Sequence record: PX880098.1
DNA: 44,688 nt
Direction: 5' to 3' (one strand)
Source: a phage
Below, piece after piece: positions 8,828 through 36,154 of this stretch (positions are counted from its first letter, which is position 1; every line of letters begins with the position of its first letter). The notes beneath the pieces are model-generated. The model made no database searches and was not told the origin of the DNA. It worked only from the letters and a program-made list of their open reading frames with translations. Both the position numbers and the translations under genes were made by a program.

Positions 8828-8829
8828 AA

Positions 8830-9444
8830 ATGGCGAAAACTAAAACAGAGATGTTCACCCTTATCGGGGCCAATCTCCCTGATAACACGACAGGGCTTAT
8901 CACCCCCGCAGCGTTGCGTGAGGTAATGACGCAGATGGCGGACTCGCCTATTTATGCCACTCCTGGTGTTAAAGAGGTTGAAGTTCTCCGTGCTGCATCG
9001 ACCGTGATACAAGCGCCTACCGCGGTAGACACAGCATTGCAGTTAACTTTTGGCTCTGCTCAGGGAAGTGCGTCTGACCCGGTAATGATTAATGCCGCTG
9101 GGCTAGTTACGTTTAACACCGCGGGTAGCTACGCTGTTCGCATCAAGTTACAGGCGGGGCGTACTGGCGCGAGCGGGACGTCCATCCTGTTATCGCGCAT
9201 TCTTCTTAACGGCGCTCAGTACGGCTCACCCGCCGCTACGAAACTGGTAAGCGCCGACGTAACAATCCCGATTGAGTCTCGGGTCGTTATTAACCCGACC
9301 GCGGGGCAGACTTTTGCCGTTCAGATTATGCGAGACATCGCCGGAAGCAACTTTGGCGGAGTATACTCTCAAGCGGCTACTGTAACCGCATGGGGCACAG
9401 CACCGTCAGCCCTACTGGTTATTTCGAGACTGGAGGCCGCCTGA
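8830..9444 (+). CDS. hypothetical structural protein (204 aa)
   Basis: Tightly packed ORF in head-tail joining region. Confidence 0.5.
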   Translation: MAKTKTEMFTLIGANLPDNTTGLITPAALREVMTQMADSPIYATPGVKEVEVLRAASTVIQAPTAVDTALQLTFGSAQGSASDPVMINAAGLVTFNTAGSYAVRIKLQAGRTGASGTSILLSRILLNGAQYGSPAATKLVSADVTIPIESRVVINPTAGQTFAVQIMRDIAGSNFGGVYSQAATVTAWGTAPSALLVISRLEAA

Positions 9445-9803
9445 TGAGCACAGCTTTCAGTAAACGTATGCAAGGCGTTGGTACACGCCTGTTAACCAAA
9501 TTCGGTAGCACGGTATCTCTGATTCGCGCTGGCTCGAAAGTGTGGGATGAAGTTCTCGGCGAGTACGTCTGGTCCGCGGATGAAGTGTTGCCATTAAAGG
9601 CCGTTCCGGTTCCGGTTAATGCAGGACTGGTGAACGGTACGACGATTCAGGCAGGCGATATGATTGTTAAAGCCGATTACAGCGTAGTTCCGAAGATGGA
9701 AGACAAGGTGCAATTTGGCGGCGAGCAATGGTCTGTCGCAGCTATTGAGAAGAAGATGGTTAACGATGATGTCGTGGCCTACTTTATTCAGGTGAGAAAA
9801 TGA
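9444..9803 (+). CDS. putative head closure / neck protein
   Basis: Start ATG 9444 overlaps upstream stop (CTGATGA); position in neck gene run. Confidence 0.45.
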   Translation: MSTAFSKRMQGVGTRLLTKFGSTVSLIRAGSKVWDEVLGEYVWSADEVLPLKAVPVPVNAGLVNGTTIQAGDMIVKADYSVVPKMEDKVQFGGEQWSVAAIEKKMVNDDVVAYFIQVRK

Positions 9804-10195
9804 GTTTCGCTCTCGATGTCTCTAAGTTCGTGGAAAAGGCGAAGAAGAATCCTGAGAAGGTGATGCGTCAGGTGTCTATCAAGCTGTTTTCCGCTATCAT
9901 AAAGGCGAGTCCGGTAGATACAGGCCGATTCCGTATGAACTGGATGGCGTCTGGCGGTACTCCTGCTTCCGGGATTATGGACGCTACGGATAAATCAGGA
10001 AACATAGCTATCGGAAACGCTACAAGTTTCGTGCTGAAAGCCGCCGACTGGCACGAGTTCACGCTGACAAATAATCTGCCGTATGCCCAACGGCTGGAAT
10101 ATGGCTGGTCGCAACAGGCCCCCGCCGGTATGGTCAGGACTAACGTGTCTCGCTTCCAGCAACTCATTAACGAAGAAGCCAACAAGGTGAAATGA
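9800..10195 (+). CDS. HK97 gp10-like tail component (neck/tail completion)
   Basis: C-terminal NNLPYAQRLEYGW matches the HK97 gp10-family signature; ATGA overlap with neighbours. Confidence 0.55.
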   Translation: MSFALDVSKFVEKAKKNPEKVMRQVSIKLFSAIIKASPVDTGRFRMNWMASGGTPASGIMDATDKSGNIAIGNATSFVLKAADWHEFTLTNNLPYAQRLEYGWSQQAPAGMVRTNVSRFQQLINEEANKVK

Positions 10196-10608
10196 TGGGC
10201 TACTTTGAGGACTTAACCAAAGCGTTCGATGTGCCGCTGGTAGCCTTTGGAACGACCAACGGCATCAAGGTAGCGCTTGAAAACATCGACGCGCCGACGT
10301 CAACAGATACGGCGTATCTGGCAAGCTACATGTTGCTGGCAGATACGGAACAGGCGGATTTGTTCTTCACGGAACAACGCTCAGGTGTTTATCAGGTTGA
10401 CATTAACTACGCATCGGTGAAAGGTAGCGCGCCAATCAATAAAATGGCAGACTTACTTAACACGGCGTTTAAAGCAGGTAAGTCATTTTCACGTAACGAC
10501 ATCTGCGCCGAGGTTCAATCGGTTAGCCTGGGGCCACTGATTGTAGAAAACGGATGGGCCAAACGACCATTGTCAATTAACTTTATTGCATTCACCAAGA
10601 GGCTGTGA
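10192..10608 (+). CDS. putative tail terminator protein
   Basis: 138-aa ORF immediately upstream of major tail protein gene; ATGA-coupled. Confidence 0.45.
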   Translation: MMGYFEDLTKAFDVPLVAFGTTNGIKVALENIDAPTSTDTAYLASYMLLADTEQADLFFTEQRSGVYQVDINYASVKGSAPINKMADLLNTAFKAGKSFSRNDICAEVQSVSLGPLIVENGWAKRPLSINFIAFTKRL

Positions 10609-10610
10609 AT

Positions 10611-11780
10611 ATGGCTACAACTCCTTTTAAGGGCGCGAATACCGCGCAATTCTATGTGGCGGAGACAACCCCTGGCGTAACCCCAGACAACCCTGTCTGG
10701 TCGCCGTTGCGTAACACCGGCGGTGTTCCTGCGGTAACCCGCGATGCGCTCACCTCCAACGAACTCGACGGCAGCCGTGAAACTACGTCCATCCGCACTG
10801 GTAACAAGCAGGTCAGCGGAGAGTACGCCATTGAGCTTAGCTCCCGTAGTCAGGATGATTTCCTCGCTGGTGCGATGACATCTACGTGGCAGGATGGGGT
10901 AACCTTATCCGCTGTCGGTATTACGGTAGACCCGGTAGCAAAAACTTTCACCCGCGACGCTGGCAGCTTCATTACTGACGGTGTAGAGGTCGGGGACCTT
11001 CTGTATTTTGACGCTTTAACTGGCGATAACTCTAAACCGTTCATCGTTACTGCCGTAACAGCTACTGTGGTTACAGGCGCAGGCATTCAGCACACCCTTA
11101 CCGCCGAAGGCCCTATTGAGACCGATGGAAAAACTGGCGACAAACTGGAAACCGGTAACGCATGTAAGACGTTCTCCATCCTGACATGGTTCAAAGGCCA
11201 GTGCGGGAACCCTGACGCGTACATGCTGACCAAAGGCGTGGAAATCTCCGGTTTCACCATTGAACAGGCCGTAAACGCGATGGTGACAGGAAGCTTCCCG
11301 TTCATCGGTCTGAGTCAGGAAATTCTTTCCGGCCCACCGGCAGGTTCCGACTTCTCTCAGGTCACATTCACCGATGAGCCGTTCTCATCTGTAGATGTGT
11401 CTGTGTCCGACGGTTCTACGCCGTTGCGTTGCGATACTCTGACCATCACCAACGACAACGGCGCATCTGCTCAGTTCGAACTTGGTAACAGTAGTGTTGC
11501 GTTCGTGGAGCGTGGTCGCGCGGCTAACACCTTCTCCATCTCCGGTAAGCTGTATGACATGGCGATGATTCAGAAGTTTATCAACGAGCAGCAGGTAGAG
11601 ATTAACTCTATTCTGGCTGGGGTAAACGGGGCCATGTCTTTCAGTTTGAAACGTGCGGAACTTACGGCGGTTACACCAGAGATTGGCGGACCTGAGTCAA
11701 TCACTCAGTCCATTGAAGGCCAGGCCACCGGCAATCAGTACCAGTCTTCTATTGTTATCCAGCGTATCACCTACGCATAA
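10611..11780 (+). CDS. major tail protein
   Basis: 391-aa ORF; SD AAGAGG 8 nt before ATG 10611; followed by strong terminator; position before chaperone and tape measure genes. Confidence 0.6.
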   Translation: MATTPFKGANTAQFYVAETTPGVTPDNPVWSPLRNTGGVPAVTRDALTSNELDGSRETTSIRTGNKQVSGEYAIELSSRSQDDFLAGAMTSTWQDGVTLSAVGITVDPVAKTFTRDAGSFITDGVEVGDLLYFDALTGDNSKPFIVTAVTATVVTGAGIQHTLTAEGPIETDGKTGDKLETGNACKTFSILTWFKGQCGNPDAYMLTKGVEISGFTIEQAVNAMVTGSFPFIGLSQEILSGPPAGSDFSQVTFTDEPFSSVDVSVSDGSTPLRCDTLTITNDNGASAQFELGNSSVAFVERGRAANTFSISGKLYDMAMIQKFINEQQVEINSILAGVNGAMSFSLKRAELTAVTPEIGGPESITQSIEGQATGNQYQSSIVIQRITYA

Positions 11781-11784
11781 AACT

Positions 11785-11810
11785 AAGGCCCCGAAAGGGG
11801 CCTTTTTCTT
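11785..11810. terminator. bidirectional intrinsic terminator
   Basis: AGGCCCC-GAAA-GGGGCCT followed by TTTTTCTT on plus strand; sits where plus and minus transcription converge; identical 29-mer repeated at 23352. Confidence 0.7.
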
Positions 11811-17499: not shown

Positions 17500-17999
17500 T
17501 GAGCGACTTATATTTCCCACGTAGCCTTAAGCCTATCGTATCGAAAGGCTATTCAATGACCAGACGCAACAACGTCTGGAGTGTAGATTTAGCTGGCGGC
17601 GGGGTGCGTCAGGGCCGTGACACGTACTACGACGTGTTCCCAGTGAGCGTAACCCTGATTACATCTGCAATGGGGCGGCAGGCGTTTCTGTCGTTCCTTG
17701 AGAAAGTCGATGGTGGTGCTTCAAGTTTCTGGATGGCGCACGACTTCGGCATGGGTATCGAGGATTATCAGGTAACAATCACGTCAACCATCGCGGAATC
17801 CACCGAAGACGGCATTAACTGGACAATTACCTTCACGGCAACCGCTGAGAAGTCTCCATTCCAGGACCTCGAGAATCAGTGCCTGATTAATAATCTGCCC
17901 GATTTGTACGGCTGCTATGGTGATGGGCTGGGATGTTTCCTTAAAGCATACGGAACCGCACAATCAACGTTTCCACGAATTTGGGACCCGATGCAATGA
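17499..17999 (+). CDS. minor tail protein (gpM-like position)
   Basis: First gene after tape measure; ATGA overlap. Confidence 0.5.
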   Translation: MSDLYFPRSLKPIVSKGYSMTRRNNVWSVDLAGGGVRQGRDTYYDVFPVSVTLITSAMGRQAFLSFLEKVDGGASSFWMAHDFGMGIEDYQVTITSTIAESTEDGINWTITFTATAEKSPFQDLENQCLINNLPDLYGCYGDGLGCFLKAYGTAQSTFPRIWDPMQ

Positions 18000-18511
18000 G
18001 CCAGGAATCAGTAGAAGCCGCCTATCGCCGCAAGCTGGCCTCAAATCCCGACGGCGAGATGGACTACATCACGTTACAAATCAGCCACCCGTTGCTGTCA
18101 AAGACGTATTATCTTGTGCGCGGGTTACAGGAACTCACAGCAACACTGGAGACGGGCGAAACTATCACGTTTGAGCCGACCCCGATGGAGGCGTCGGGGG
18201 CTGCTAATAATAACGACATGGACCAGACTACGACGTTTACCCTTCCTGACGTCGGAAATTTACTGGACGATGAGCTGGATAATATTCCGATGGACAGTAC
18301 TGAGTTGCCGAAGTTCGTATTTCGCCGTTATGTCAGCACCGACCTGTCTTACCCAGCAGACGGCCCTGTGGTATACGAGGCGCAGACAATAGCCCAGGAC
18401 AAGGGACGATTCTCTGCTAATTTAGGGACACCTATGCTTAACCAACGAAGCACTGGTATACTCATGACACCTAAAGAGATACCTTTATTACGCGGCCTGT
18501 TAATCACATGA
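17996..18511 (+). CDS. minor tail protein (gpL-like position)
   Basis: Start ATG 17996 overlapping upstream stop; second gene after tape measure. Confidence 0.5.
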   Translation: MSQESVEAAYRRKLASNPDGEMDYITLQISHPLLSKTYYLVRGLQELTATLETGETITFEPTPMEASGAANNNDMDQTTTFTLPDVGNLLDDELDNIPMDSTELPKFVFRRYVSTDLSYPADGPVVYEAQTIAQDKGRFSANLGTPMLNQRSTGILMTPKEIPLLRGLLIT

Positions 18512-18873
18512 ACATTAACGACTACACGGGGATACCCTACGACTTTCGCAAACGCAATTGCTGGCATCACGTGCGTATTGTCCGTGCGGATGCCGGGTTA
18601 GCTACACCGGCGTTCGACGCCACAAGCCCAACGGCAATTAACGACGCGTTTGATGAAGGCCGTCGTGACACGAAGGGGCTTACGAAAATTGATAAGCCTG
18701 AAAACTTGTGCGCGGTTCTTATGGGTAGGCGTCGCGGTGGTAGAATCGTATGGCACGCCGGGGTCTACTTTGACGGAATGGTGAGTCATTGCGAAATGGC
18801 CTCCCGTCAGGTACGGCTTGACAGGCTTGTTGACCTAAGAGACTTGTACACGGAGATTGAATTTTGGCGATAA
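18508..18873 (+). CDS. tail assembly protein with NlpC/P60-like Cys-His motif (gpK-like)
   Basis: RNCWHHV and HAGVY motifs suggest a Cys/His peptidase fold; position matches lambda K. Confidence 0.5.
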   Translation: MNINDYTGIPYDFRKRNCWHHVRIVRADAGLATPAFDATSPTAINDAFDEGRRDTKGLTKIDKPENLCAVLMGRRRGGRIVWHAGVYFDGMVSHCEMASRQVRLDRLVDLRDLYTEIEFWR

Positions 18874-21410
18874 TCCTGCACTACACGCGAAATGCTAACG
18901 GTGTTTTCGACCGCACAAAACACGTCGGGACGCCGATGGAGTTTGTCGTCAACAATATCCCCGACGGCGTTCCTGTGCGCGTATATCTCGGTGAGATTGG
19001 TGATGACACCGATATCACTGACGACTTCGACGCGCTTAAAGACGAGGACGCGGTGTTCCACATAGTAGAAGGAGCTGGTGGCGGTGCGCTTGTAGTAGGT
19101 GCGCTTGTTGCGTTGGTCGTCGTCGCGGCTACGGTTTTACTAACTAAGAAACCTAGTCTGGCGGTAACAGCGACAAATAACCAAGCAAAATCCGCTAATA
19201 ACAGCCTCACAGACCGCTCCAACAAACCACGGCCTTATGAGCGCTCTTATGATATCTGCGGGACGGTGCAGACTATACCCAACGACCTGATGCAGACGTA
19301 TAAGGCGTTCGACAATATCGGGAATTTACTAGAATACTCGTACTATGACGCGGGGCGCGGGTATCTGCATATTGAGGCTGACGGTGTCACAGAGGGCGAC
19401 ACCCTGATAAGTGACATCACAGGCTCCTCTGTTGCCGTGTATGCGCCATATACCTCCCCGAACAACACCGCGTCACCGCAACTACAAATCGGCGACGTCA
19501 TTGACCAGAAACTCTATGTAACATACTCCAACGACGACGTTGACGGTATTGTACTAAAAGCGCCAAACGACATTGGGGCTAACCCAAGCGCCGACGGCAC
19601 AGCTAAACGCATTTCAAACACCGGCTACATCTATGACCCGTCAGGAGACTCTGCTTTTTCTGAGTTTCTTAGCGTTGGTGATATCGCGGTGCTGAGCAAC
19701 TTCGATGTTGCTGATGTCACTAACCTGAACGGCTCGTTTGAGGTTTTATATGTTGACGACTTCGAAGTGAGATTAGCCGTAAACGGTGCTTCTAACTGGA
19801 CAGCGTTGACCAGCGGGCAGACGTACACACTAACTGAGCGTTCGGATACTTTCATAGGCCCGCGCGACACCTATGATGTGTCCTTGACCGACTGGTACTA
19901 CATGGTACGGGGAGAGGTTGACCGCGTGCTCGCTAACGTTGCCGGGCAGAACGGCCTCTACAAATACGACGGAGGTTATAGTCGCGCCAACGTAACCGTA
20001 GAACTCCAGTACCAGATGATTGATTCTCAACGTAACCCGTTGGGGGATATCTACACAGTACAGGCCACAGTTACCGGTAATAGCACTGATTACGTCGGCA
20101 CGTCCATTTATGGGCAATTGCCTACTGCATCGCGTTTCCGCGCCCGCATGCGCCGTGTAACTAATTTCGATAAAGACTACGACGGTACGGTAAGCGACGA
20201 GATAACATTCACCAACCTGTATGGGCAGTCTCTGGACACAACCCCGCACTACGGAAACCGAACTACCGTACATTGCGCACGTAAACAGACGCCGCGGGCC
20301 GCAAGTATCGATAACCCTGAACTACGCATGATTGCGACCGAGATGTGCTACAAATACCTCGGCAACGGGGTATTCGATACCGAGATGACCCCTAATACAC
20401 AGGCGGTGCAGTCGCTAATCAGACTTGCCAGAGACCCCGCAGTGGGTAATCTGGAACTGACAACGGCAAACATGGACAAGTTACTTGCTGTGCAGGAAGA
20501 AATTGAGTCCTATTTCGGAAGTGAATTAGCGGGGCAATTCTGCTACACGTTCGACGACTATGACACAACTATGCAGGACATTGTTCAGACCATAGCGGAA
20601 GCCGTGTTCTGTACTGCATACCGTAAAGGTGCGGATATTATGCTGCGATTCGACCGTCCTGTCGCGGGTCCTGAAATGGTGTTCACCCACCGCAGTAAGA
20701 CGACAGGAACGGAGAAATGGACGCGCACATTCAACGATTCGACAACCTACGATAGCCTGTCGTTCTCGTACATTGACCCGGATACAAACGTGCGGGAAAC
20801 TATTTATATCCCGGAAGAACTCGGCGCAAACACCGAGGAATATGAATCGAAGGGCGTGCGTAACTATCAGCAAGCGTACTGGCTGGCATGGCGTCGTTAC
20901 CAGCGCAATGCGTTAAGTAAAGTTGTCGTAGAGTTCGAAGCTACGGAAGAAGGTGCTCTCGCTACTCCCGGCGGCGTAATCAGTGTGGTTAAAGGCTCGC
21001 GTATCGCGCCGCAGGATGGCTATGTTGTTGCCGTTAATGGGCTTACGCTGACACTGTCGCAGCCTGTTACGTTTACCCCCGGCGATGACCACTCCATCAT
21101 CCTCAAGAAGCGCGACGGCTCTGTTCAGAGTATCTCTGTTATCAAAGGAAGCCACGACCGCGAGGTGATTATGCTATCCGCGCCGGAGGAGGCAATCTAC
21201 ACGGGGAATAGCGCGCTAAAAACCGAGTTTTCATTCGGCAACGAAGCAAGGCATAATGCTCAGAAGATAGTTGTTTCTTCAATCGACCCGGGCGACGACC
21301 GCACGGTCAAGATTACTGGCTACAACTATGACGACGGATTCTATAAATACGACGGCGTCGCGCCTCACGGCAGCGGTTTCTCCGACGGATTAAGCAACGG
21401 TTTTAGTTAA
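18864..21410 (+). CDS. tail tip / central fiber protein (gpI-like N-terminus fused to gpJ-like body)
   Basis: 848-aa ORF; N-terminal GAGGGALVVGALVALVVVAATVLL hydrophobic patch typical of lambda I-like proteins; listed start is TTG, true start may be ATG 18936. Confidence 0.55.
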   Translation: MAIILHYTRNANGVFDRTKHVGTPMEFVVNNIPDGVPVRVYLGEIGDDTDITDDFDALKDEDAVFHIVEGAGGGALVVGALVALVVVAATVLLTKKPSLAVTATNNQAKSANNSLTDRSNKPRPYERSYDICGTVQTIPNDLMQTYKAFDNIGNLLEYSYYDAGRGYLHIEADGVTEGDTLISDITGSSVAVYAPYTSPNNTASPQLQIGDVIDQKLYVTYSNDDVDGIVLKAPNDIGANPSADGTAKRISNTGYIYDPSGDSAFSEFLSVGDIAVLSNFDVADVTNLNGSFEVLYVDDFEVRLAVNGASNWTALTSGQTYTLTERSDTFIGPRDTYDVSLTDWYYMVRGEVDRVLANVAGQNGLYKYDGGYSRANVTVELQYQMIDSQRNPLGDIYTVQATVTGNSTDYVGTSIYGQLPTASRFRARMRRVTNFDKDYDGTVSDEITFTNLYGQSLDTTPHYGNRTTVHCARKQTPRAASIDNPELRMIATEMCYKYLGNGVFDTEMTPNTQAVQSLIRLARDPAVGNLELTTANMDKLLAVQEEIESYFGSELAGQFCYTFDDYDTTMQDIVQTIAEAVFCTAYRKGADIMLRFDRPVAGPEMVFTHRSKTTGTEKWTRTFNDSTTYDSLSFSYIDPDTNVRETIYIPEELGANTEEYESKGVRNYQQAYWLAWRRYQRNALSKVVVEFEATEEGALATPGGVISVVKGSRIAPQDGYVVAVNGLTLTLSQPVTFTPGDDHSIILKKRDGSVQSISVIKGSHDREVIMLSAPEEAIYTGNSALKTEFSFGNEARHNAQKIVVSSIDPGDDRTVKITGYNYDDGFYKYDGVAPHGSGFSDGLSNGFS

Positions 21411-21422
21411 AGAGGACTCTAT

Positions 21423-23354
21423 ATGTCAAGCGGATGCGGTGACGTTTTAAGCCTGGCGGATTTACAGACCGCCAAGAAACACCAGATTTTCGAGGCCGAG
21501 GTTATCACGGGTAAATCCGGCGGCGTAGCCGGTGGCGCCAATATCGATTACGCTACAAATGCCGTTACAGGGCAGACGCAGAAGACACTCCCTGCCGTGT
21601 TGCGTGACGCCGGGTTCAGACCTGCGTCTTTCACATTCGAAACAGGTGGGACGCTGGGCGCGAATGACGCCGACTTGGCGGTGTTGTGGCCAGGGCCATC
21701 TGGCGACGGCAACTATTATGCGTGGAAAGGTGCTCTGCCAAAAACTATCCCTGCATCTTCGACGCCAGCCTCGACGGGCGGAGTAGGTCAGACCGCATGG
21801 GTTGCCGTTAGCGAAGCTGCATTGCGCCGTGATTTGGCCCTAAGCACTGGCGCAGGGTTAGTTGGTACGTCTTCGGGGCGCACGGTGCAGGGCGAGGTCG
21901 ATCATTTCAAAATAGGGTATATGACCCCCGATGATTTCGGCGCGGTAGGTGATGGTGCCACCGACGACACCACGCCTTTGCAACAGGCTATTGACTATTG
22001 TTCAAGCAACGGTATCGCGTTAAGAATCCCCGCAAAATCTTATGTTTGGAATGGCGGTATTATAACTTCACCCATAACAATAATCGGTGACAGACGTCCA
22101 GATTACAATTTTAGCTCCAATTCTATGTCTAACGGGTCTGTCATAATTGGCAATTTAAGATTTTCCGCAAGCCAGGTGATTATTAAGTCACTTGGTGTGC
22201 GTAGGCCTACAGGCTCCCCCGGAGATTGTCTGGTGTTATCGACCGATAACTATGCTGGTGGGGCTTGTATTGTTCAAGATGTAGTTGCCGCGGGCCTTTC
22301 CGGTTCGGACACGTACCACAGCGTTCTTGTTGAAGGCTACGATTCCGCGCATGTATCTCAAATAACTGGCGGTTATAATCTTTTTGGCCTCGCGATTAAG
22401 TCAAGAAACGTTGTTGCCAGAGGCGTAATAACCGTAAGCTGTGATACTGGCGTTATCATTAAATCTGATAGTGAGTTCAGCACGGCAAAAAATGTGGTGC
22501 TGGACGGGCACATTAATGTCGGTAATGGTGTTTCTAGTCAAGGTGTTTGGATTTACAGCACAACCGCACAACTTGAGCGTATTACCTGCGCAAACTTACA
22601 AAGCATCGATTCCGCTATACATATGCGGATTAAGTCCGAAAACGTAGCTAATGACGTGCAAATTGTTGGGGCAAATTATTCAGGATCTACTTATGCGGAT
22701 GTGCTCGTCGAAGGCACTTCGGCTGGCACGTTGTACAATGTTAGTTTAGATAGTATAACCGCAGTAAATAGCCAGAAATTTATGGCTGCAGGTTTCTGTG
22801 AACAACTGATGGTAACAGGATTCTATGGGTCCCTGAAACCTGGCGCTCCCGCCGATACTGCGTTTGAGGTTAGCGCCGCCGTAGGGCTTTTTAGCGGGTC
22901 AAATATCCAACTAGTCCGTCAATACAGCAGTGACCTAATGACAATGAATCTCGGTAACAGTTATCTTAATAATAGATTATCATCTGTTAAGGCGAAAGTA
23001 ATAGGAAACGGCAAACCTAGGCCGGGGTATAAAGAACAGAATCTTAGCGGCGCTGCGGCTACAATGATTGTTGGCGACAGTTTGGGGCCCTCTGGGGTTG
23101 TGTCTGTCACCGCGATATCCACCGGCAGTTCATTCAGCAGTATTGCTATTAATGACGACTATGGTCAGCCGGTTAAGCCAGGTTTTCTTCTAATAATCCG
23201 AAACGCATCCGCTATCTCGTTCGTTATGAACCATAATCCAGGGTCTGGTGGAATCGCAAATAACGGGGCGGTTGGTAAGACCATTGCGGGCGGAGACACT
23301 ATAATGTACGTTTTTGACGGGACGAATTGGCGTCAAACTCCATCTATAGCTTAA
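21423..23354 (+). CDS. tailspike / receptor-binding protein with pectate-lyase-like beta-helix
   Basis: 643 aa; DDFGAVGDGATDDTTPLQQAID is the pectate-lyase-superfamily beta-helix signature common in phage depolymerases; last gene of tail block. Confidence 0.65.
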   Translation: MSSGCGDVLSLADLQTAKKHQIFEAEVITGKSGGVAGGANIDYATNAVTGQTQKTLPAVLRDAGFRPASFTFETGGTLGANDADLAVLWPGPSGDGNYYAWKGALPKTIPASSTPASTGGVGQTAWVAVSEAALRRDLALSTGAGLVGTSSGRTVQGEVDHFKIGYMTPDDFGAVGDGATDDTTPLQQAIDYCSSNGIALRIPAKSYVWNGGIITSPITIIGDRRPDYNFSSNSMSNGSVIIGNLRFSASQVIIKSLGVRRPTGSPGDCLVLSTDNYAGGACIVQDVVAAGLSGSDTYHSVLVEGYDSAHVSQITGGYNLFGLAIKSRNVVARGVITVSCDTGVIIKSDSEFSTAKNVVLDGHINVGNGVSSQGVWIYSTTAQLERITCANLQSIDSAIHMRIKSENVANDVQIVGANYSGSTYADVLVEGTSAGTLYNVSLDSITAVNSQKFMAAGFCEQLMVTGFYGSLKPGAPADTAFEVSAAVGLFSGSNIQLVRQYSSDLMTMNLGNSYLNNRLSSVKAKVIGNGKPRPGYKEQNLSGAAATMIVGDSLGPSGVVSVTAISTGSSFSSIAINDDYGQPVKPGFLLIIRNASAISFVMNHNPGSGGIANNGAVGKTIAGGDTIMYVFDGTNWRQTPSIA

Positions 23355-23358
23355 AACT

Positions 23359-23382
23359 AAGGCCCCGAAAGGGGCCTTTTCT
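23359..23382. terminator. bidirectional intrinsic terminator
   Basis: AGGCCCC-GAAA-GGGGCCT plus T run; between convergent tailspike and minus-strand operon. Confidence 0.7.
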
Positions 23383-23523
23383 CTACTCTTCTGATAACTT
23401 CTCCAGTACAAACGCCAGTTGTGCATTAGCGGCATCTCTCTGTTGCCGTAGGCGTAGAACCTCCTCTTCAATTTCCTTGATACGTTTTTGCAATGCCGGA
23501 ATCGGGGCTATGATGTTCATCAT
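23383..23523 (-). CDS. small coiled-coil protein (46 aa), absent from ORF track
   Basis: ATG overlaps the stop of the upstream gene (ATGA); uninterrupted 46 codons; last gene before the terminator. Confidence 0.4.
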   Translation of the reverse strand: MMNIIAPIPALQKRIKEIEEEVLRLRQQRDAANAQLAFVLEKLSEE

Positions 23524-23708
23524 TTGAACTCCACCAAACCGTTGTTAAAGAACTCGGCGATTATGTAGCCCGAGTCATCGTCGTAATCGGCGACTATCTC
23601 GCCATCGTCCTCATAAGTTACGCGGTACTCAATGCCGTTATAGTAGGCCTGATATTCTTCACCCTCTTTGAACTCAGGTACGTTTGAGCTAACACAAAAC
23701 AATTTCAT
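23520..23708 (-). CDS. hypothetical protein (62 aa, acidic)
   Basis: ATGA-coupled ORF in minus-strand operon. Confidence 0.5.
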   Translation of the reverse strand: MKLFCVSSNVPEFKEGEEYQAYYNGIEYRVTYEDDGEIVADYDDDSGYIIAEFFNNGLVEFK

Positions 23709-23890
23709 TTCTTACCTTCGCTTTTCTTGAAACTGCACTTTATGTCCGGCAGCGTGTAGCACCGTGATTTTTCGTATTTACCGTTCGAGCTTACCAAAAC
23801 AAAGCTGTTGCCGTCTTTTGATATGTACTCGACAATAAAAGTATTGGATGTATGTACGCTGTATATTTCGTCTCCAACATTAAGCTTCAT
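23705..23890 (-). CDS. hypothetical protein (61 aa)
   Basis: ATGA-coupled ORF downstream of helicase gene. Confidence 0.5.
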   Translation of the reverse strand: MKLNVGDEIYSVHTSNTFIVEYISKDGNSFVLVSSNGKYEKSRCYTLPDIKCSFKKSEGKK

Positions 23891-26352
23891 TTCTTACCTC
23901 GTCTCTTCATGTAATTAAGCAATTCTTCCTGGACAGATTTCTTCTCGTCAGTGCGCGCGGCGACAACCTCATCCAGCGTGTCTTTAGCAACGATGTGGTA
24001 TAGGAACACAGGGCGCTCGTGACCCGCCTGTTTCTGGCGTACTGGGCCTATACGCTCAACAACCTGCAAATAGTGCTCAAGGTTCCAGCCTTGTGAAATG
24101 AATGCCAGATGATGCCCTCCGTCCTGTAAATTCAAACCATGGCCCGCTGACGCAGGATGCACGCATAATATTTCGATTTCCCCGCGGTTCCACGCTTCCA
24201 TCTGCTTATTACCTTTAACGCCTTTGGCAAACGCCTGCGCCTGCGGGAATCGCTTAAGGATGCGCTCCAGTTCGTGCTTGAACTGATAGGCCACTAGTAA
24301 CGGCGCACCCTGTAGCTCCTCAACAATGGACTCCAGAGCATCCAGTTTCGTGTCGTGTACTTTCTCCCAGTCTTTCGTTGCTTCGCCATCTGGCCCTGAT
24401 ACGTATACGGCACCGGATGCAATCTGCAGACACTTAGAGGTCTTCGCCGCAGCGTTAGCCGCTTCAACTTCTCCGCTCTCCAGTTCAGCAAATAACTTCT
24501 CCTCCATATCGATGTACGCCTGACGCGCTTTCTTCGGCAGGTCAATTTCAACCGGTACAATTATTGGCGCTTCACAACCAAACCACTCGGCAGCGTCAAT
24601 CGTGAGACTAATGTCCTTCATCTTCTGGTGAATTTCGTTATCCGCACCTGGGCGGGCGTGGTATTCGCGCGCCATAGCCGATTTGCCTTTCTGTACCGAG
24701 TTAAACCAGCGGTCGGTGAATGCTGTGTATGATGACCCCAGGCGCTCGCCAGCGTCGATAAACCAGTTCTGGCCCCACAAGTCCTTGAGGCCGTTTGGTG
24801 ACGGTGTACCGGTCAGATTGATGAAACGTTTAACATTACCGAACGCCACTTTGCTTAGTGCCTTTGCTCGCTTGCTTCCGCCAGAACGGCTGCGGAATGA
24901 TTTCAACTTCGTGCTCTCATCGGCAACAATAACCGTAAAAGGCCAGTCGTCTTTGCCGTAGTAGTCAATCAGCCACTCGATTACCTCATAGTTCGTGCAC
25001 ACCACGTTAGCGTCGGACTCCAGCGCCGCGATGCGGCGCTTCTCTGAACCGGTCGCATCTACGACGCGCAGACAAGGGAAACCCCACTTAGTTTGTTCTG
25101 CCGGCCATGTGCCGGACGCAACACGCAACGGCGCAAGGATTAACACACGGTCGTCATCATTAAGTTGGCCGTTGCGGAACAGCCGATTGAGAACCCACAT
25201 CGTCGAGCTTGTGTTGTGCGTTACGGTGAAGTCGCCTAATAGAAACCGGTGGTCACCGTCGATAGTGAAGCCGTAATAATCATCTACGCCGACCGGGGTT
25301 ATAGATTCTATTCCAACGTTAAGTACGTTTTTATTAATATTACGCTTCGGTAAATTCTGGTGGCGGCCACGCACGAAAGGCACCTCAGAAAAATCGCCTG
25401 ATACCGATACGCGGAAGTAATCCCCCCAAACATCAGTGTTTGCGCAACGCTTACGAGTTTTCTTCTTGTAAGCGGCGAAACCAAGAGAACGGCATAGATA
25501 GCAAAAATCATCAGCGAGTCGCTCGCTTACCGAAATCCAGTCAAAACCTGCTTTAGACAAATCACAATAACCGTCGCTATCCAGAAGCCCCGCCAGCAAT
25601 TCTAAACGTTGCTGCCGGTCGCCGCATTTGTAATTATGCGGTATATGCTTATGGTTCAAGACCCCCGCCGACCTCAGCGCGTGCGTAAGCCCGTGCTTCT
25701 TATTGCCAGTATTGCCGTAAGATATACTCCATGTAAGTCCTTCTTTTCGTATTTGCATCCCATTACGCGCTGCGTACGATTCAAGATACTCCCTTATTTC
25801 CTTTTCGTTTTCCCCAGATGTTATGGCTCCCGACGATGAGGTGCCATCACCAAGCCACAGCCCCATAAGGTACGGGGGCAATAAAGCATCGTCCTGATCT
25901 TTCCTCGGGAAATCGACAGGTACTCGCCAACCCTTAAGATACCCATTAGGTCCGGTTACATATTTCGGCAACTTAAGCCAGTCGCGGACGCTTATGTCGA
26001 AAACGGTATTATCCGGCCATGAACCCTTTGCTATCCCTGTAGTAGTTCGCAGTGATAATATATGGCTTTCGTTTACCGTATACGACTCTCCTTTTCGCGG
26101 TTTAACCTCGTACATCATCTCCCGGCCTCTACCGAGAGACAGTACATTTCTAGGCGTTGAATCTGGCCCCATAAGCACGTCACCGACGATGACGTCTTCT
26201 ACTTTCTTGGTCGTACCGTCAAACATAATAACTTCAGTCCCGCGTTTCAGGCACTTGCCGCTACCCATACTTGCCCAGATATTACAGCGCGGGTTCCGCA
26301 GCATGAACGAGGTCATGAGCTTTTGATAAGGCCTTCTAGTGAATTTACTCAT
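23887..26352 (-). CDS. SNF2-family helicase interrupted by an intein
   Basis: Walker A split as MGSGK|intein|TSS; DExx-like box VIVADESTKLK; NLTGTPSPNGLKDLW and GHGLNLQDGG helicase motifs. Confidence 0.75.
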   Translation of the reverse strand: MSKFTRRPYQKLMTSFMLRNPRCNIWASMGSGKCLKRGTEVIMFDGTTKKVEDVIVGDVLMGPDSTPRNVLSLGRGREMMYEVKPRKGESYTVNESHILSLRTTTGIAKGSWPDNTVFDISVRDWLKLPKYVTGPNGYLKGWRVPVDFPRKDQDDALLPPYLMGLWLGDGTSSSGAITSGENEKEIREYLESYAARNGMQIRKEGLTWSISYGNTGNKKHGLTHALRSAGVLNHKHIPHNYKCGDRQQRLELLAGLLDSDGYCDLSKAGFDWISVSERLADDFCYLCRSLGFAAYKKKTRKRCANTDVWGDYFRVSVSGDFSEVPFVRGRHQNLPKRNINKNVLNVGIESITPVGVDDYYGFTIDGDHRFLLGDFTVTHNTSSTMWVLNRLFRNGQLNDDDRVLILAPLRVASGTWPAEQTKWGFPCLRVVDATGSEKRRIAALESDANVVCTNYEVIEWLIDYYGKDDWPFTVIVADESTKLKSFRSRSGGSKRAKALSKVAFGNVKRFINLTGTPSPNGLKDLWGQNWFIDAGERLGSSYTAFTDRWFNSVQKGKSAMAREYHARPGADNEIHQKMKDISLTIDAAEWFGCEAPIIVPVEIDLPKKARQAYIDMEEKLFAELESGEVEAANAAAKTSKCLQIASGAVYVSGPDGEATKDWEKVHDTKLDALESIVEELQGAPLLVAYQFKHELERILKRFPQAQAFAKGVKGNKQMEAWNRGEIEILCVHPASAGHGLNLQDGGHHLAFISQGWNLEHYLQVVERIGPVRQKQAGHERPVFLYHIVAKDTLDEVVAARTDEKKSVQEELLNYMKRRGKK
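25213..26253 (-). mobile_element. intein with LAGLIDADG homing endonuclease domain (347 aa)
   Basis: Begins with Cys after GSGK, ends THN followed by Thr; two LAGLIDADG-like motifs LMGLWLGDGTS and LAGLLDSDGY; C-terminal block FLLGDFTVTHN. Confidence 0.75.
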
Positions 26353-32817: not shown

Positions 32818-35100
32818 CTATTCCAAATCCTCCTCTGTCACCACCAGCATTTCATTAGGTTCGTATATTGTCTTCGGCCTTAGTCTATCCCCTATTCTTT
32901 CAGGTATACGATACGTTCGCGGCACTACTTCGCCGTTAGCGTCACAGCCTAGCATTAGTTCGCCATCTTTCAGCATTTTATCAAGATGGGTGTTAGTCAC
33001 AGAAAAGTCACCGGAACGGGCAACTATCTGCTGCTGAGTAAAACCGCGACCTGTGTCATCTGACTGTTGCAGGTCTTCCAGTGCCGAAAGTATTGACTCC
33101 TTTCTCCCTTCATCCCTGCCGCGTTTAACTTCTTCCTTTACTTTTTCTTTACCTTTATCGGATAGCCCTTCTTCCCGCTCCTTCTCCTCGTCAGTTTTGA
33201 ACGGCTCGAAGCCCCACGGCATCAATACAAGCGCTTTGTGCGGTTCAGGCAGGTCGAGGTTTACGATTGTGCCGTATTCCTCTGTGCTACCCCGGAACTC
33301 AACCGCGCGGTACTCTTTCGGCGGCGGGGCTTCGCGGAACTGTACGGACTCAAGCACCATGCCAACCGTTTTCTGCTGAGGCCCGTGCTTAAATTTTGAG
33401 TGGTATACGTTTATCTGACGGTCGGTAGCGCGTTCGATTGTCAGCTCTACGTCAACGCCCGCGTACAGCGCCCCACTGCCACGGGCTTTCTTTCCACCCT
33501 TCGGCGTATGGTGGACGACGCCTACCGCGGCTTTAGTCGCGTCGCGTACTTCTTTCAGGATGGCGATGACTTTACCCATGCCGATTGCCGTTGATGAACT
33601 GTTCTCGTCGAACTTATCAATCGTCAGGGCCAGGGTCTGGTTAAGGGTGTCGAACGCGACCATGCCAATTGGCTCGTCGCCAGCAGTTTCTCGCATCAGC
33701 TTAATCAGGCTTTTCAGTTTTCCGACTTCACCCATATCGATGACGTGTACATAATCTTTACCTTCCACGCCATATTTAGCCGCGAGCGCGTCAATACGTG
33801 TGCGGGTGGCGGCACCGCCCTCCCCGTCGATATAGAAATGGTGGCAACGCTGGGTGTCCGCCCCTGCAAACCTGTATCCGGCGGCGCTGAGGTACATCAT
33901 CCCCAGCGTATAAAACGATTTGTACGTACCGGATTCCCCAACAATATCCCAGATGCAATCTGACGGCATGTACCCTTCAACGACGAAATCAGCCTTTACC
34001 GGTTCCGGCAACTCGCCCTCCTCTGAGTCTTCGTCATCTTCCAGGTCGTCAAGGCTGCATGAAACGGACTCCCGCGCACCCCAACCTATAGCCTCTGCAA
34101 CCTCACTGAACGGAAGCCCGGTCGCGTCGCACGCGTATTTCCACACCTCTTTCGGTGACATGCCTTCGGTCGCCGTAATGTCGGTGTCGTGAATCATGGT
34201 TACGTTCGGCGCTTCGTACCCCTCGCGCGGGAAGCACAGCAGGAAGTCATCTGGCCTCGGCGTCGGGTCGCTGTATTTTTCTGCGTGTTCCGGCGTAGCT
34301 GGCATCTTAAGGCCGCGCGGCGTCATGATACCGCCGTATTCAAACGCCAGCGCCTCAAACGCATCGGTAAACGCTGTGCGCAGTTCTTCCGGTATCTGGT
34401 AATCCGACGCGCTGCTAACGTCGACGGCTGGGATGCCTTCCAGTAACTCGTCCGGGTCAATCAGGTCGTTGCGACGAGACCAGATAACCTGAGAGCCGAC
34501 CGGCGGCAGGTACATCGGCTGCGACAGAGTGAACCCGCTGCGGTCAGCACCCATGCCTTTAAAGAAGTGCTCCAGCAATCCGTGACGAACGCGGATGATG
34601 TCACCGCCTTCAACCGGACGACCCAGAGGCATGACTACGCGAAAGCGCGGTGACTCATCGGTATGTGATGCCGTGGTGTAGAGACACATAGCCCGACGGC
34701 TGCGCTTAACCAGACGCACTGCTTCCTGGTACTCTTCCGGTGTTGCACTGTCGAAGTCCAGATACGCCAGCGACGATTTGCTTACAGACGCGTCACAGCG
34801 ATAAAAGAAACCTTTGCGCGCTTGCTTAAAGTCACCGGTTTCCGGGTCTTTTACGGTGCTGTGCGTTGAGTCGCACGCGGCAGTGATATAGCCAGGCGCT
34901 GTCTTCGGGTTAACCCCGTCTCGAATGGCATCGAGCGGCTGTATTAACTCTTTCAGGTCGTCCAGTGTTGCCGTGTGCGTGGTTCTGACGTTTATATCCT
35001 TTTTCTCAGCCCGCGCGTTGCGACGTGACCACGAGTAGGATAAAATTACATCGGACATGTTGTATATTCCTTCAGCAAGTAATTTGGCCTCGGCGTTCAC
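32818..35100 (-). CDS. primase-helicase (AEP-type primase domain fused to P-loop NTPase)
   Basis: AEP-like DxD motif AYLDFDSATPEEY and SH-TDE motif in N-terminal half; Walker A GESGTYKS in C-terminal half; C-terminus TEEDLE. Confidence 0.6.
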   Translation of the reverse strand: MNAEAKLLAEGIYNMSDVILSYSWSRRNARAEKKDINVRTTHTATLDDLKELIQPLDAIRDGVNPKTAPGYITAACDSTHSTVKDPETGDFKQARKGFFYRCDASVSKSSLAYLDFDSATPEEYQEAVRLVKRSRRAMCLYTTASHTDESPRFRVVMPLGRPVEGGDIIRVRHGLLEHFFKGMGADRSGFTLSQPMYLPPVGSQVIWSRRNDLIDPDELLEGIPAVDVSSASDYQIPEELRTAFTDAFEALAFEYGGIMTPRGLKMPATPEHAEKYSDPTPRPDDFLLCFPREGYEAPNVTMIHDTDITATEGMSPKEVWKYACDATGLPFSEVAEAIGWGARESVSCSLDDLEDDEDSEEGELPEPVKADFVVEGYMPSDCIWDIVGESGTYKSFYTLGMMYLSAAGYRFAGADTQRCHHFYIDGEGGAATRTRIDALAAKYGVEGKDYVHVIDMGEVGKLKSLIKLMRETAGDEPIGMVAFDTLNQTLALTIDKFDENSSSTAIGMGKVIAILKEVRDATKAAVGVVHHTPKGGKKARGSGALYAGVDVELTIERATDRQINVYHSKFKHGPQQKTVGMVLESVQFREAPPPKEYRAVEFRGSTEEYGTIVNLDLPEPHKALVLMPWGFEPFKTDEEKEREEGLSDKGKEKVKEEVKRGRDEGRKESILSALEDLQQSDDTGRGFTQQQIVARSGDFSVTNTHLDKMLKDGELMLGCDANGEVVPRTYRIPERIGDRLRPKTIYEPNEMLVVTEEDLE

Positions 35101-35117
35101 CGCGTCGGGGCTTTCTT

Positions 35118-35351
35118 TTATTCCAGGTCTTCTAAAGTAGCGGTCATTCCGCGAACTTCAGCAACAGCGCTATATTTCCCGCCCACATTTTTCACGACAC
35201 CGGATTTAACCAGTACTCGTAACGACGCTTCAATAATGGCGGAACTATAGTACTTAAAATAACTACGGCGCAAGTCGATAACACTGCACGACCCTTTTTT
35301 ACGTGTTAACGAAACTACAGCTGTGAATACCCGTGACTGAAACTCGGTCAT
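35118..35351 (-). CDS. hypothetical small protein (77 aa), possible winged-helix
   Basis: ATGA-coupled to upstream HTH ORF; C-terminus TATLEDLE. Confidence 0.5.
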   Translation of the reverse strand: MTEFQSRVFTAVVSLTRKKGSCSVIDLRRSYFKYYSSAIIEASLRVLVKSGVVKNVGGKYSAVAEVRGMTATLEDLE

Positions 35352-35518
35352 TTCACGTTCTCCTTAATCCATGCTTCCACTTTCTCCGGGTCGAACGTGC
35401 CTGGCTGCCGGCGGCCCATAATGCGAATACAACAATCCGGGAACTTCCCACTCTTTAACCAGTTATTGAGCGTGCGGCGAGTAACCCCGATACGCTCAGC
35501 TACTTCATTCTGTGTCAT
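35348..35518 (-). CDS. AlpA/Xis-like HTH DNA-binding protein (56 aa), absent from ORF track
   Basis: SD AAGGAG before ATG 35518; HTH VAERIGVTRRTLNNWLKSGKFP; stop overlaps next start (ATGA). Confidence 0.6.
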   Translation of the reverse strand: MTQNEVAERIGVTRRTLNNWLKSGKFPDCCIRIMGRRQPGTFDPEKVEAWIKENVK

Positions 35519-35657
35519 CTTTAATCTCCTTAATTATTTCACGCGCTAACGCTGTAGCTGTGCCGTATTTATTGGGGCAGTATCTGCTCTCATTATGCCC
35601 ACTAAACCACGCTTCTATCAGCAACTCTTTCAACTGTTCTTCTGTCAAAGTAACCAT
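35505..35657 (-). CDS. small protein (50 aa), absent from ORF track
   Basis: First ORF after minus-strand promoter 35690-35718; SD GAGGG; overlaps downstream gene start. Confidence 0.4.
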   Translation of the reverse strand: MVTLTEEQLKELLIEAWFSGHNESRYCPNKYGTATALAREIIKEIKDDTE

Positions 35658-35689
35658 TCTCAAACCCTCATTATCAGTTAACGAAACCG

Positions 35690-35718
35690 AGTATACATTG
35701 CGAATAATGGGAAATCAA
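35690..35718 (-). promoter_or_regulatory. sigma70-like promoter (TTGATT-N17-TATACT) of the leftward operon
   Basis: Minus-strand reading TTGATTtcccattattcgcaatgTATACT; back-to-back with the plus-strand promoter at 35734. Confidence 0.5.
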
Positions 35719-35733
35719 ACACAATCGCACCTA

Positions 35734-35762
35734 TTGACATTAAGAAAATCTTCGTTTAAGGT
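35734..35762 (+). promoter_or_regulatory. sigma70-like promoter (TTGACA-N17-TAAGGT), rightward
   Basis: Consensus -35 TTGACA with 17-nt spacer and TAAGGT; no ORF for about 380 nt downstream; terminator at 35999. Confidence 0.45.
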
Positions 35763-35998
35763 GCTTCTATATCTTAGTTACTTTGATTCCTGTTCACCTT
35801 GTAAAACCCGCCGAAAACGAGCGCCCAACGCGAAGTGTTAGGCGGCAGTTTACTGAACACGAGAATTATTGTAACTTTCCGTCCTTAGTATCTCCGGTTG
35901 CCATGGGCAAGCTCTATTCTCATCGGCAGCATATCTCTTAAGTATCTGATTTTCTTAATGTGCCGTAGATTCGCAACCGTAAAAATGTAACGATTATT

Positions 35999-36026
35999 GG
36001 GCAGGCTTAAGGCCTGCCCTTTAGTT
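35999..36026 (+). terminator. intrinsic terminator in divergent control region
   Basis: GGGCAGGC-TTAAG-GCCTGCCC followed by TTTAGTT. Confidence 0.6.
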
Positions 36027-36091
36027 ACCAAGTAATAAGAATAATGGCACAACAGTTCCTAAATAATCACAACGGCAACGCAATTAATCTC

Positions 36092-36120: not shown

Positions 36121-36154
36121 TCACTTATAGTGACGAGACAGAGGAGTGATGGTC

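Follow-up and report, generated by a model that had tools for sequence, protein, structure and literature searches.

The tailspike encoded in the analyzed phage DNA was found to be a mosaic, in which an N-terminal anchor (aa 1–160) of Kagunavirus type is joined to a receptor-binding module (aa 161–643) that is shared, almost without change, with phages of the genus Skatevirus. We consider it highly probable (about 0.9) that this spike is modular and that the module was exchanged across phage genera as one DNA cassette, and very recently. The window, namely the whole stretch of 44,688 nt, is a Kagunavirus genome with approximately 90% identity to its relatives. The case is a clean and real swap of a host-range module, yet one that has already been described for near-identical phages (PMC11990801, PMC10408124).

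Organization of the tailspike gene and its anchor

The tailspike ORF directly adjoins the 3' end of the gene for a J-like central tail protein (18864–21410). Three Pfam profiles, namely Tail_spike_N, Pect-lyase_RHGA_epim and Phage_depo_C, exceeded their curated cut-offs in its product. The only full-length matches at 96% nucleotide identity were the genes annotated as 'tail spike protein' in the Kagunavirus phages Bas70–73 (BASEL collection) and vB_Ec_DUEC01; these spikes also comprise 643 aa, have the same anchor–neck–module order and follow a J-like gene. The features of the locus are listed in Table 1.

Table 1. Features of the tailspike locus (positions in the window)
Feature	Position	Strand	Basis
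Tailspike gene	21423..23354	+	ATG start, 643 aa (ORF list)
Predicted pan-Kagunavirus virion-attachment segment, aa 1–63	21423..21611	+	Nucleotide matches in ~90 Kagunavirus records
Second N-terminal domain (TSP1/gp66-type Tail_spike_N), aa 64–132	21612..21818	+	Pfam PF18668, PDB sequence matches
47-nt conserved 'neck' block encoding ALRRDLALSTGAGLVG; candidate 5' homology arm	21819..21865	+	Junction alignment
37-nt lineage-specific patch, aa 149–160 (SSGRTVQGEVD), neck block to module	21866..21902	+	Junction alignment
Receptor-binding module, most probably exchanged, aa 161–643	21903..23351	+	Identity to Bas77, GC3, codon usage, AlphaFold2, Foldseek, Pfam
Right-handed beta-helix in module, ~aa 177–471	21951–22835	+	AlphaFold2 model
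C-terminal beta-sandwich in module, ~aa 536–639	23028–23339	+	AlphaFold2 model
Stop codon and G+C-rich hairpin terminator (TAAAACTAAGGCCCC-GAAA-GGGGCCTTTT); module 3' edge and candidate 3' homology arm	23352..23380	+	Alignment, RNAfold

The anchor proved to be two-tiered. Its pan-genus part is limited to nt 1–~190 of the gene, which show 89–92% identity in about 100 Kagunavirus records whose C-termini are diverse; for about 90 records of this genus, K1G and other endosialidase spikes among them, the stretch from nt 1 to ~188–195 was the sole match. The spikes of K1G/K1H type, which occupy the same locus in the same backbone, are ~91% identical to the window over the first ~63 aa (nt 1–188); past this point they carry a different module, a K1-capsule endosialidase (984 aa), and have neither the neck block nor the beta-helix module of the window. 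A longer match, covering gene nt 1–446, was found in nine Kagunaviruses, and the homology to XY2, NTEC3, 590B and Bas74–76 ends at nt 443–446; thus, the domain of aa 64–132 is common to a subset of Kagunaviruses only. In addition, a tblastn search showed that Jerseyvirus spikes match aa 1–135 at 75–78%. The N-terminal anchor is therefore conserved in the genus independently of the receptor-binding type.

PF18668 (Tail_spike_N, TSP1/Gp66 N-terminal domain) matched aa 97–130 with 51.4 bits (cut-off 25), covering only profile positions 36–69 of 70. This assignment is backed by PDB sequence matches to TSP1 of the Kuttervirus CBA120 (4oj5, aa 72–191, E = 1.5e-15) and to 8x8m (aa 57–211), 5w6f and 5w6h. 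All of them are restricted to the N-terminal domain and neck, so the PDB sequence search is uninformative on the chemistry of the module. These characteristics allow us to assume that an attachment segment and a TSP1/gp66-like N-domain are followed in the anchor by a helical neck, and that the anchor secures the spike at the tail tip beside the J-like protein.

An N-terminal head-binding domain of P22 type was absent, its place being taken by the Kagunavirus/Jerseyvirus anchor and Tail_spike_N. Membership among the P22-like (Lederbergvirus) tailspikes was thus ruled out by the anchor type; the O16 spikes of Lederbergvirus (Bas106, Huey/Dewey/Louie) match the module alone, at ~31% identity.

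Distribution of the module and position of its joints

The initial annotation proposed horizontal replacement of the receptor-binding part of this gene, and comparison with Skatevirus and with other Kagunaviruses bore this out directly. From gene nt 481 to 1932, the window and Skatevirus Bas77 differ at 7 of 1452 nt (99.5% identity), and six of these differences change an amino acid; differences become dense before nt 480, and the first ~360 nt of the gene are unrelated (~50% identity). Gene nt 373–1932 match Bas77–80 at 98%, while the anchor of their spike, annotated as 'tail fiber protein', is wholly different (MATTPTNKPIPSEDPRDLKF...). A comparison of 11 kb of the window with 13.5 kb of Bas77 detected no similarity other than the spike. 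The receptor-binding domain is thus incongruent with the anchor and backbone, as judged by pairwise comparison.

The complementary picture was obtained with the Kagunaviruses XY2, Bas75 and K1G, which have other receptor-binding domains. They are homologous to the window in the genes preceding the spike gene and in its 5' end; this backbone homology is lost at 21902 (XY2), 21891 (Bas75) and 21760 (K1G) and regained at 23351–23352, that is, at the stop codon.

Co-linear relatives of the whole protein do exist, namely the spikes of Bas70–73 and DUEC01, but they do not refute the exchange, because they carry the same mosaic and their identity to the window is uneven along the gene: ~90% in nt 1–480 and 98.6% after that. 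Their modules are 97–98% identical to that of the window at the protein level, whereas the genome backbone is only 81–91% identical, as determined for Bas70. Between Bas70 and the window, 20 of the 1452 nt and 12 amino acids of the module differ; in addition, the window genome contains a helicase intein and Bas70 does not.

In the phage collection, the module was found at >95% identity in nine phages only, and its next relatives (~30%) belong to other O16-dependent BASEL phages. In a large protein database, the module was joined to five or more unrelated N-termini, one of them in a spike of a lambdoid Enterobacter asburiae prophage, encoded just after GpJ; all relatives outside Kagunavirus and Skatevirus showed protein identity of 83% or lower.

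The joint was refined relative to the initial annotation, which had put the break at about 22000. This position holds for composition (change-point at 21976), whereas the true joint lies at codon 160/161 (21902/21903), ~70–90 nt upstream of the compositional break and within its statistical support interval. The joint is located shortly 3' of the neck block, which is near-identical, at synonymous sites too, in the window, Bas70, XY2, Bas75 and the Skatevirus Bas77, whereas the flanks diverge. For Kagunavirus and five further lytic genera, motifs conserved on either side of the receptor-binding domain have been put forward as hotspots of recombination, and the position of the neck block corresponds to that of the 44-nt 'motif one' (PMC10408124). 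A sensitive blastn search found the block at the nucleotide level in 20 phage records only (Kagunavirus, Skatevirus and the Kayfunavirus Bas105), and an exact match was present in one IMG/VR contig. Thus, the block is local to this exchange network, and its interpretation as a universal hotspot was rejected. In the adjacent 37-nt patch, 14 shared positions set the window apart from Bas77, XY2 and Bas75, which agree with each other there; Bas70 is nearer to the window, and the differences are mostly synonymous.

At the 3' side, the stop codon and hairpin stem do not vary among the window, Bas70, Bas77, XY2, K1G and Bas75, whereas the coding sequence immediately 5' of the stop is unrelated between receptor-binding types. 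The homology to Bas77 extends to 23384, beyond the point where that to the Kagunavirus backbone restarts (23351). The hairpin (23359–23378) has a predicted energy of −16.3 kcal/mol (RNAfold); the consensus terminator scan, whose rule demands a longer T-tract, found no terminator in 21000–24000. The hairpin also occurs away from the spike: downstream of the minor tail protein gene there is an identical copy of 29 nt (11778–11806). At the spike, the loop sequence GAAA is common to the window and Bas77, and GTTT to Bas70 and XY2. Note that nine promoter-like sites were counted in 21000–24000, with 3.5 ± 2.0 expected.

The exchange would most likely have proceeded by homologous recombination, with one crossover within the conserved neck sequence or immediately 3' of it (21819–21902) and the other in the shared stop codon and terminator hairpin (23352–23380); short sequences are what this idea of homology arms draws on. 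It can further be proposed that the cassette is portable between two such short DNA arms and that the lineage of the window acquired it from a Skatevirus-like phage separately from the event in Bas70–73. The different terminator loops, the 7 versus 20 differences in the module and the distinct 37-nt patch at the 5' joint suggest a separate acquisition, but the proposal as a whole is tentative and, in our opinion, rather unlikely. If true, it would mean very recent, repeated and arm-guided exchanges among lytic siphovirus genera sharing an O16 host niche.

Base composition and the likely source of the module

The break in GC content inside one ORF described in the initial annotation was confirmed: GC content is 0.577 in gene nt 1–570 and 0.457 in nt 571–1932, with a window mean of 0.507. 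The best two-segment change-point by maximum likelihood was placed at gene nt 554 (2*dLL = 25.7, support interval nt 469–612). The step of 0.12 corresponds to ~3 SD of the same statistic slid along the whole window, where an equally extreme step was found at 6 of 856 positions, all at ~34100–34450 and coinciding with a gene end. The 5' part had also been described as GC-rich like the neighboring tail genes, which is true of GC3 (0.588 versus 0.583 in the J-like gene) but not of total GC; the latter amounts to 0.588 in nt 1–480 and exceeds that of the neighbors (0.52), because this Gly/Ala/Thr-rich segment has a GC2 of 0.575 versus a genome mean of 0.42.

The GC3 of the module (nt 481–1932) is 0.424, which is below all 55 stretches of the same length from the other long genes of the window (mean 0.584, sd 0.032). 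In Bas77, the locus has a GC content of 0.463 and the spike shows no internal step; the GC3 of its module (0.420) is close to that of its own anchor (0.412) and of the neighboring genes (0.39–0.52), and the module looks compositionally native there. The codon log-likelihood ratio per codon was +0.039 in the anchor and −0.015 in the module, negative values being the Skatevirus side. Of 27 window genes, 26 had a positive ratio, and all 10 Bas77 genes had a negative one, although the genes compared were those on which the codon-usage models had been trained, and the module's shift to the side of Skatevirus is only weak.

The likely source of the module is a Skatevirus-like phage or a shared third-party pool, since the synonymous-site composition of the module fits a Skatevirus-like genome of ~46% GC and not the Kagunavirus backbone. 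Transfer from Skatevirus to Kagunavirus is a candidate direction. A less favored alternative that still deserves serious weight is an exchange without a Skatevirus donor, in which either a third pool (prophages or other O16-infecting phages) fed both genera, the lineages of the window and Bas70 separately, or the transfer ran from Kagunavirus to Skatevirus. The occurrence of the module family on different N-termini, among them prophage-type spikes of E. coli and Enterobacter, agrees with it, as do the AT-rich receptor-binding domains of Kagunaviruses of any type; the closer similarity of the window module to Bas77 than to Bas70 and the distribution of the two loop sequences also hint at separate crossovers. 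Against this alternative stand the match in GC3 between the Bas77 module and its own genomic surroundings and the lower identity of relatives outside both genera.

It is very improbable that no transfer took place and that the GC step reflects the differing amino-acid make-up and folding constraints of an anchor rich in Ala and Gly and a beta-helix rich in Asn, Ser and Ile, in a gene inherited vertically in Kagunavirus. The anchor and module differ in GC by 0.106, 0.110 and 0.164 at codon positions 1, 2 and 3, so more than half of the break is due to amino-acid composition, and the codon-usage signal is confined to the GC3 part. Gly and Ala together make up 29% of the anchor versus 20% of the module, and Asn and Ile 4% versus 15%. 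The GC step was also present in every Kagunavirus spike examined, whichever receptor-binding domain it has, and the domains of XY2, K1G and Bas75 are similarly AT-rich (GC3 0.42–0.48); composition alone is therefore weak evidence for exchange. However, the drop in GC3 falls outside the range of the other long genes of the window, and the explanation by composition only was rejected, as it is contradicted by the 99.5% identity of the module in an unrelated genus and by the non-homologous sequence that other Kagunaviruses hold exactly there, between conserved flanks. Homology proves the exchange better than composition does. An assembly chimera joining reads of two co-occurring phages, which has in its favor the generic possibility alone and a look-up of identical proteins that gave no record of this exact protein elsewhere, can be practically dismissed and was rejected, because the same anchor–module junction occurs co-linearly in five independently isolated and sequenced phages (Bas70–73 and DUEC01), the reading frame is intact and the flanks on both sides are syntenic with Kagunavirus genomes.

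Fold and putative function of the module

The beta-helix starts where the initial annotation had placed it: PF12708 (Pect-lyase_RHGA_epim) matched aa 170–358 (31.1 bits, cut-off 27), and the stacked short strands of the AlphaFold2 monomer model extend over aa 177–471 with a pLDDT of ~85–95. A second all-beta domain was modeled at aa 536–639 (pLDDT ~75–87), and PF25692 (Phage_depo_C, depolymerase C-terminal beta-sandwich) matched aa 560–637 (28.9 bits, cut-off 25). A Foldseek search against the PDB retrieved solved beta-helix tailspikes with a probability of 1.0; the matches are generic, with TM values of 0.2–0.3, which are low partly because the N- and C-terminal domains are poorly placed in the monomer model. 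The best matches mix hydrolases, epimerases and lyases and define no enzyme class, and the term 'pectate-lyase-like' is a label of the fold only. Residues E304, D307, D341, D349, D411 and E460 are invariant in 18 homologues and can be regarded as candidate catalytic residues only.

TSP1 and TSP3 of CBA120 (PDB 4oj5, 6nw9) were the top Foldseek matches and have a beta-helix spike plan in common with the window. However, their beta-helix bodies show 12–15% identity to the window spike, with low TM-scores, and have other glycan targets; in CBA120, moreover, four spikes are assembled into a branched complex, and the phage is a myovirus. The O-antigen endoglycosidase spikes of P22, Sf6 and HK620 were matched with Foldseek E values of ~1e-3 to 1e-4. 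These are trimeric right-handed beta-helices that bind and cleave O-antigen, and by analogy the window spike probably works alike, although it is part of a siphovirus. AlphaFold-Multimer trimers have been reported for representative BASEL spikes (PMC11990801).

Experiments have shown a strict requirement of Bas70–73 and Bas77–82 for the E. coli O16 O-antigen (PMC11990801); enzymatic processing by the BASEL O16 spikes was inferred in the published studies, not measured (PMC11990801, PMC10408124). According to tblastn, aa 191–643 of the window spike share 97.3–99.1% protein identity with Bas70–73 and Bas77–80. Because of this 97–99% identity to spikes of phages that need the O16 O-antigen, the module most likely binds this O-antigen and enzymatically processes it. 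In this way, the phage would be able to pass through the O-antigen layer, and the module would determine the host range.

Thus, the module most likely decides which E. coli the phage infects, probably O16 strains. The joints at codon 160/161 and at the stop codon/terminator offer practical splice points for engineering the host range of Kagunavirus. The spike adds one more data point to the established picture, in which anchors track taxonomy, and receptor-binding domains track host serotype and cross genera.

Composition and predicted structure of the tailspike

The genome was assigned to a Kagunavirus (Guernseyvirinae) siphophage using megablast with a 24-kb query, of which 70–83% was covered by many E. 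coli Kagunaviruses at ~88–91% identity. The tailspike ORF, on the plus strand, lies where the initial annotation had placed it and is followed by the minus-strand replication gene block (Table). Three Pfam domains were found in its product, all scoring past curated cut-offs. Modeling using AlphaFold2 with an alignment of 18 homologues led to a confident beta-helix at residues ~177–471 (pLDDT about 85–95), a C-terminal all-beta domain (residues 536–639) and a poorly defined N-terminal part of mixed structure that includes neck helices (residues 129–142 and 155–162). Both the Pect-lyase_RHGA_epim domain and the model agree with the beta-helix initially assigned to the AT-rich part. Foldseek matches in the PDB were beta-helix tailspikes, namely CBA120 TSP3 and TSP1, followed by phi29 gp12, Sf6 and HK620; the predicted fold class is clear from these matches, whose low TM-scores define no enzyme class. 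Sequence matches in the PDB were confined to the N-domain and neck.

The intragenic GC break noted initially is real: GC content was 0.577 at gene nt 1–570 and 0.457 at nt 571–1932, with a likelihood change-point at nt 554 (position 21976; support nt 469–612). The step reaches ~3 SD of the window-wide distribution, and equal steps were found elsewhere only near 34100–34450, at a gene end. The sole other step of matching strength between intervals (GC 0.577 in 34001–35000 versus 0.447 in 35001–36000) is not intragenic; it lies near 35100, where a 760-aa ORF (32818–35100, minus strand) ends and an AT-rich region (about 35100–38000) starts. The 5′ part is indeed GC-rich, but in the anchor (residues 1–160) this stems from amino-acid content (Gly, Ala, Thr), the synonymous sites being typical of the genome. 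In GC3, the receptor-binding module (residues 161–643) fell below 55/55 stretches of its own length from the remaining long genes (mean 0.584, SD 0.032). The composition break is only in part a codon-usage signal. Since the spikes of XY2, K1G and Bas75, Kagunaviruses with other modules, share the GC step, it marks Kagunavirus receptor-binding domains generally; alone, it would be no proof that an event was recent. Sigma-70-like promoter matches were somewhat over-represented in 21000–24000 (9 versus 3.5 ± 2.0 in dinucleotide-preserving shuffles); several sit within the module, on both strands, and suggest no function.

Table. Features of the tailspike region and related loci (window coordinates unless specified)
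Feature	Position	Strand	Size	Details
J-like tail protein gene	18864–21410		848 aa	directly upstream of the tailspike ORF
Tailspike ORF	21423–23354	+	643 aa	
Anchor	gene nt 1–480			GC 0.588; GC1 0.600; GC2 0.575; GC3 0.588
Module	gene nt 481–1932			GC 0.461; GC1 0.494; GC2 0.465; GC3 0.424
Long ORFs, mean				GC 0.514; GC1 0.57; GC2 0.42; GC3 0.55
Tail_spike_N	aa 97–130			Pfam
Pect-lyase_RHGA_epim	aa 170–358			Pfam
Phage_depo_C	aa 560–637			Pfam
Neck block	21819–21865		47 nt	encodes ALRRDLALSTGAGLVG
Patch 3′ of neck block	21866–21902		37 nt	
Spike stop codon and hairpin	23352–23380			hairpin 23359–23378; stem TAAAACTAAGGCCCC-loop-GGGGCCTTTT; −16.3 kcal/mol
Small AT-rich ORF	23520–23708	−	62 aa	between spike terminator and helicase block
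SNF2-type DNA helicase gene	23887–26352	−	821 aa	
Helicase intein	~25189–26263			LAGLIDADG homing endonuclease; Pfam Hom_end_hint, LAGLIDADG_3
E. asburiae prophage spike	8001–9914 of prophage locus L006		637 aa	GCA_016771105.1, contig JAENNF010000002.1

Homology map and joints of the module

By sequence comparison, the homology map rather than composition is decisive for the proposed mosaic spike. Nucleotide matches formed four nested classes: the full-length gene in Bas70–73 and DUEC01 (96%); nt 373–1932 in Skatevirus phages Bas77–80 (98%; 46–47-kb genomes, annotated as "tail fiber protein"); nt 1–446 in XY2, NTEC3, SCS92, 590B, KMB35 and Bas74–76 (~90%); and nt 1–~190 in ~90 further Kagunaviruses, K1 endosialidase phages among them (89–92%). 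The anchor is two-tiered. Compared base by base, differences from the Bas77 spike were dense to nt 480, followed by 7 in 1452 nt (99.5%); the Bas70 spike showed ~50 differences in nt 1–480 and 20 after. The sole alignment between 11 kb of the window and 13.5 kb of Bas77 was 21795–23384. Backbone homology ends at 21902 (XY2), 21891 (Bas75) and 21760 (K1G) and restarts at 23351–23352, the spike stop codon. The foreign segment is therefore placed at 21903–23351 (residues 161–643). Horizontal replacement of the receptor-binding domain, as proposed initially, is thus supported by the near-identity to Bas77 and the broken backbone homology; the break stands, with its joint refined to codon 160/161, where that near-identity starts (21903).

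At the 5′ joint, the neck block is near-identical, even at synonymous sites, between the window, Bas70, XY2, Bas75 and Bas77, and both flanks diverge. The adjoining patch has one variant in the window and Bas70 and another in Bas77, XY2 and Bas75; crossovers evidently occurred on either side of it. At the nucleotide level, the block was found in 20 phage records only, namely Kagunaviruses (two module types), Skatevirus Bas77–81 and Kayfunavirus Bas105, and in IMG/VR in one contig only.

At the 3′ joint, the stop codon and hairpin stem were invariant in six of six aligned Kagunavirus and Skatevirus phages. The 4-nt loop was GAAA (window, Bas77), GTTT (Bas70, XY2) or AAAC (K1G, Bas75), which weakly hints that the window and Bas70 lineages may have distinct 3′ crossover points. 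The AAAC and GTTT loops are reverse complements of each other, as would result from inversion of the hairpin tip. Stop codon and G+C-rich hairpin form a 29-nt sequence, TAAAACTAAGGCCCCGAAAGGGGCCTTTT, that is repeated exactly in direct orientation (chance expectation, none): it ends the minor tail protein gene (10605–11780) at 11778–11806 and the tailspike gene at 23352–23380, in both cases at a convergent-transcription junction. Because an identical copy ends the former gene, the hairpin is a general terminator and not a spike-specific signal. In position, the neck block and hairpin match two proposed recombination hotspots (PMC10408124), "motif one" for the block and "motif three", a terminator, for the hairpin.

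In a large protein database, the module family (54–99% identity) is carried on at least five unrelated N-termini, one being that of a lambdoid prophage spike in an Enterobacter asburiae chromosome, encoded just after GpJ. The module of this spike is 77% identical to that of the window and its anchor is different again; the prophage encodes tail tube, tape measure, DUF1833, GpJ and, last, the spike, with host genes ~1.3 kb downstream.

A further mosaic patch (17996–19917) involves the 5′ third of the J-like gene. Bas70, XY2 and Bas75 showed only ~81% identity over 17996–19524 and no homology at ~19525–19853/19916, after which it returned at 87–91%; the K1G alignment is unbroken over 17934–21760 (87%).

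Inferred direction and age of the exchange, and a second mobile element

The Bas77 locus has a GC content of 0.463 (GC3 of its genes 0.39–0.52), and its spike has no internal step (GC3 0.412 in the anchor, 0.420 in the module). A synonymous-codon log-likelihood ratio of Kagunavirus backbone versus Skatevirus genes came to +0.039 per codon in the anchor versus −0.015 in the module, with positive values in 26/27 window genes and negative ones in 10/10 Bas77 genes; the models had been trained on the genes compared. By the Bas77 composition and this ratio, the module resembles resident sequence of a Skatevirus-like genome and appears to be an import in the window, a modest signal; a third-party donor is conceivable. 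Given that backbones cannot be aligned between the two genera and are only ~90% identical within Kagunavirus, seven differences in 1.45 kb imply that the exchange would have been very recent.

The helicase intein is a second horizontally moving element of this genome. It is inserted in the helicase P-loop (GSGK|C...HN|T), shares ~95% identity with the inteins of Salmonella Jerseyvirus phages (170/177 matching records were Salmonella phages and 4/177 Escherichia phages) and is absent from the helicase homologues of Bas70, XY2 and Bas75 (462–474 aa). The 62-aa ORF had no Pfam match and was found at the nucleotide level in six phage records only (ZCEC5, KMB36 and Ro145 phages), not in Bas70, XY2, K1G or Bas75.

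Predicted function of the tailspike

The phages Bas70–73 (Kagunavirus) and Bas77–82 (Skatevirus and relatives) are described as infecting K-12 only with O16 O-antigen restored (PMC11990801), and the module protein is 97.3–99.1% identical to the spikes of these phages. Judging from homology and the literature, the spike most likely binds and enzymatically processes O16 O-antigen as the sole receptor-binding protein. Candidates for the active site are the acidic residues E304, D307, D341, D349, D411 and E460, which do not vary across the 18 aligned sequences. No database record was found for the exact protein sequence in a look-up. Modular exchange was already published for Kagunavirus generally (PMC10408124) and for near-identical spikes (PMC11990801); module swapping is textbook for tailspikes, and this spike adds a new variant, at the isolate level, to a known type.
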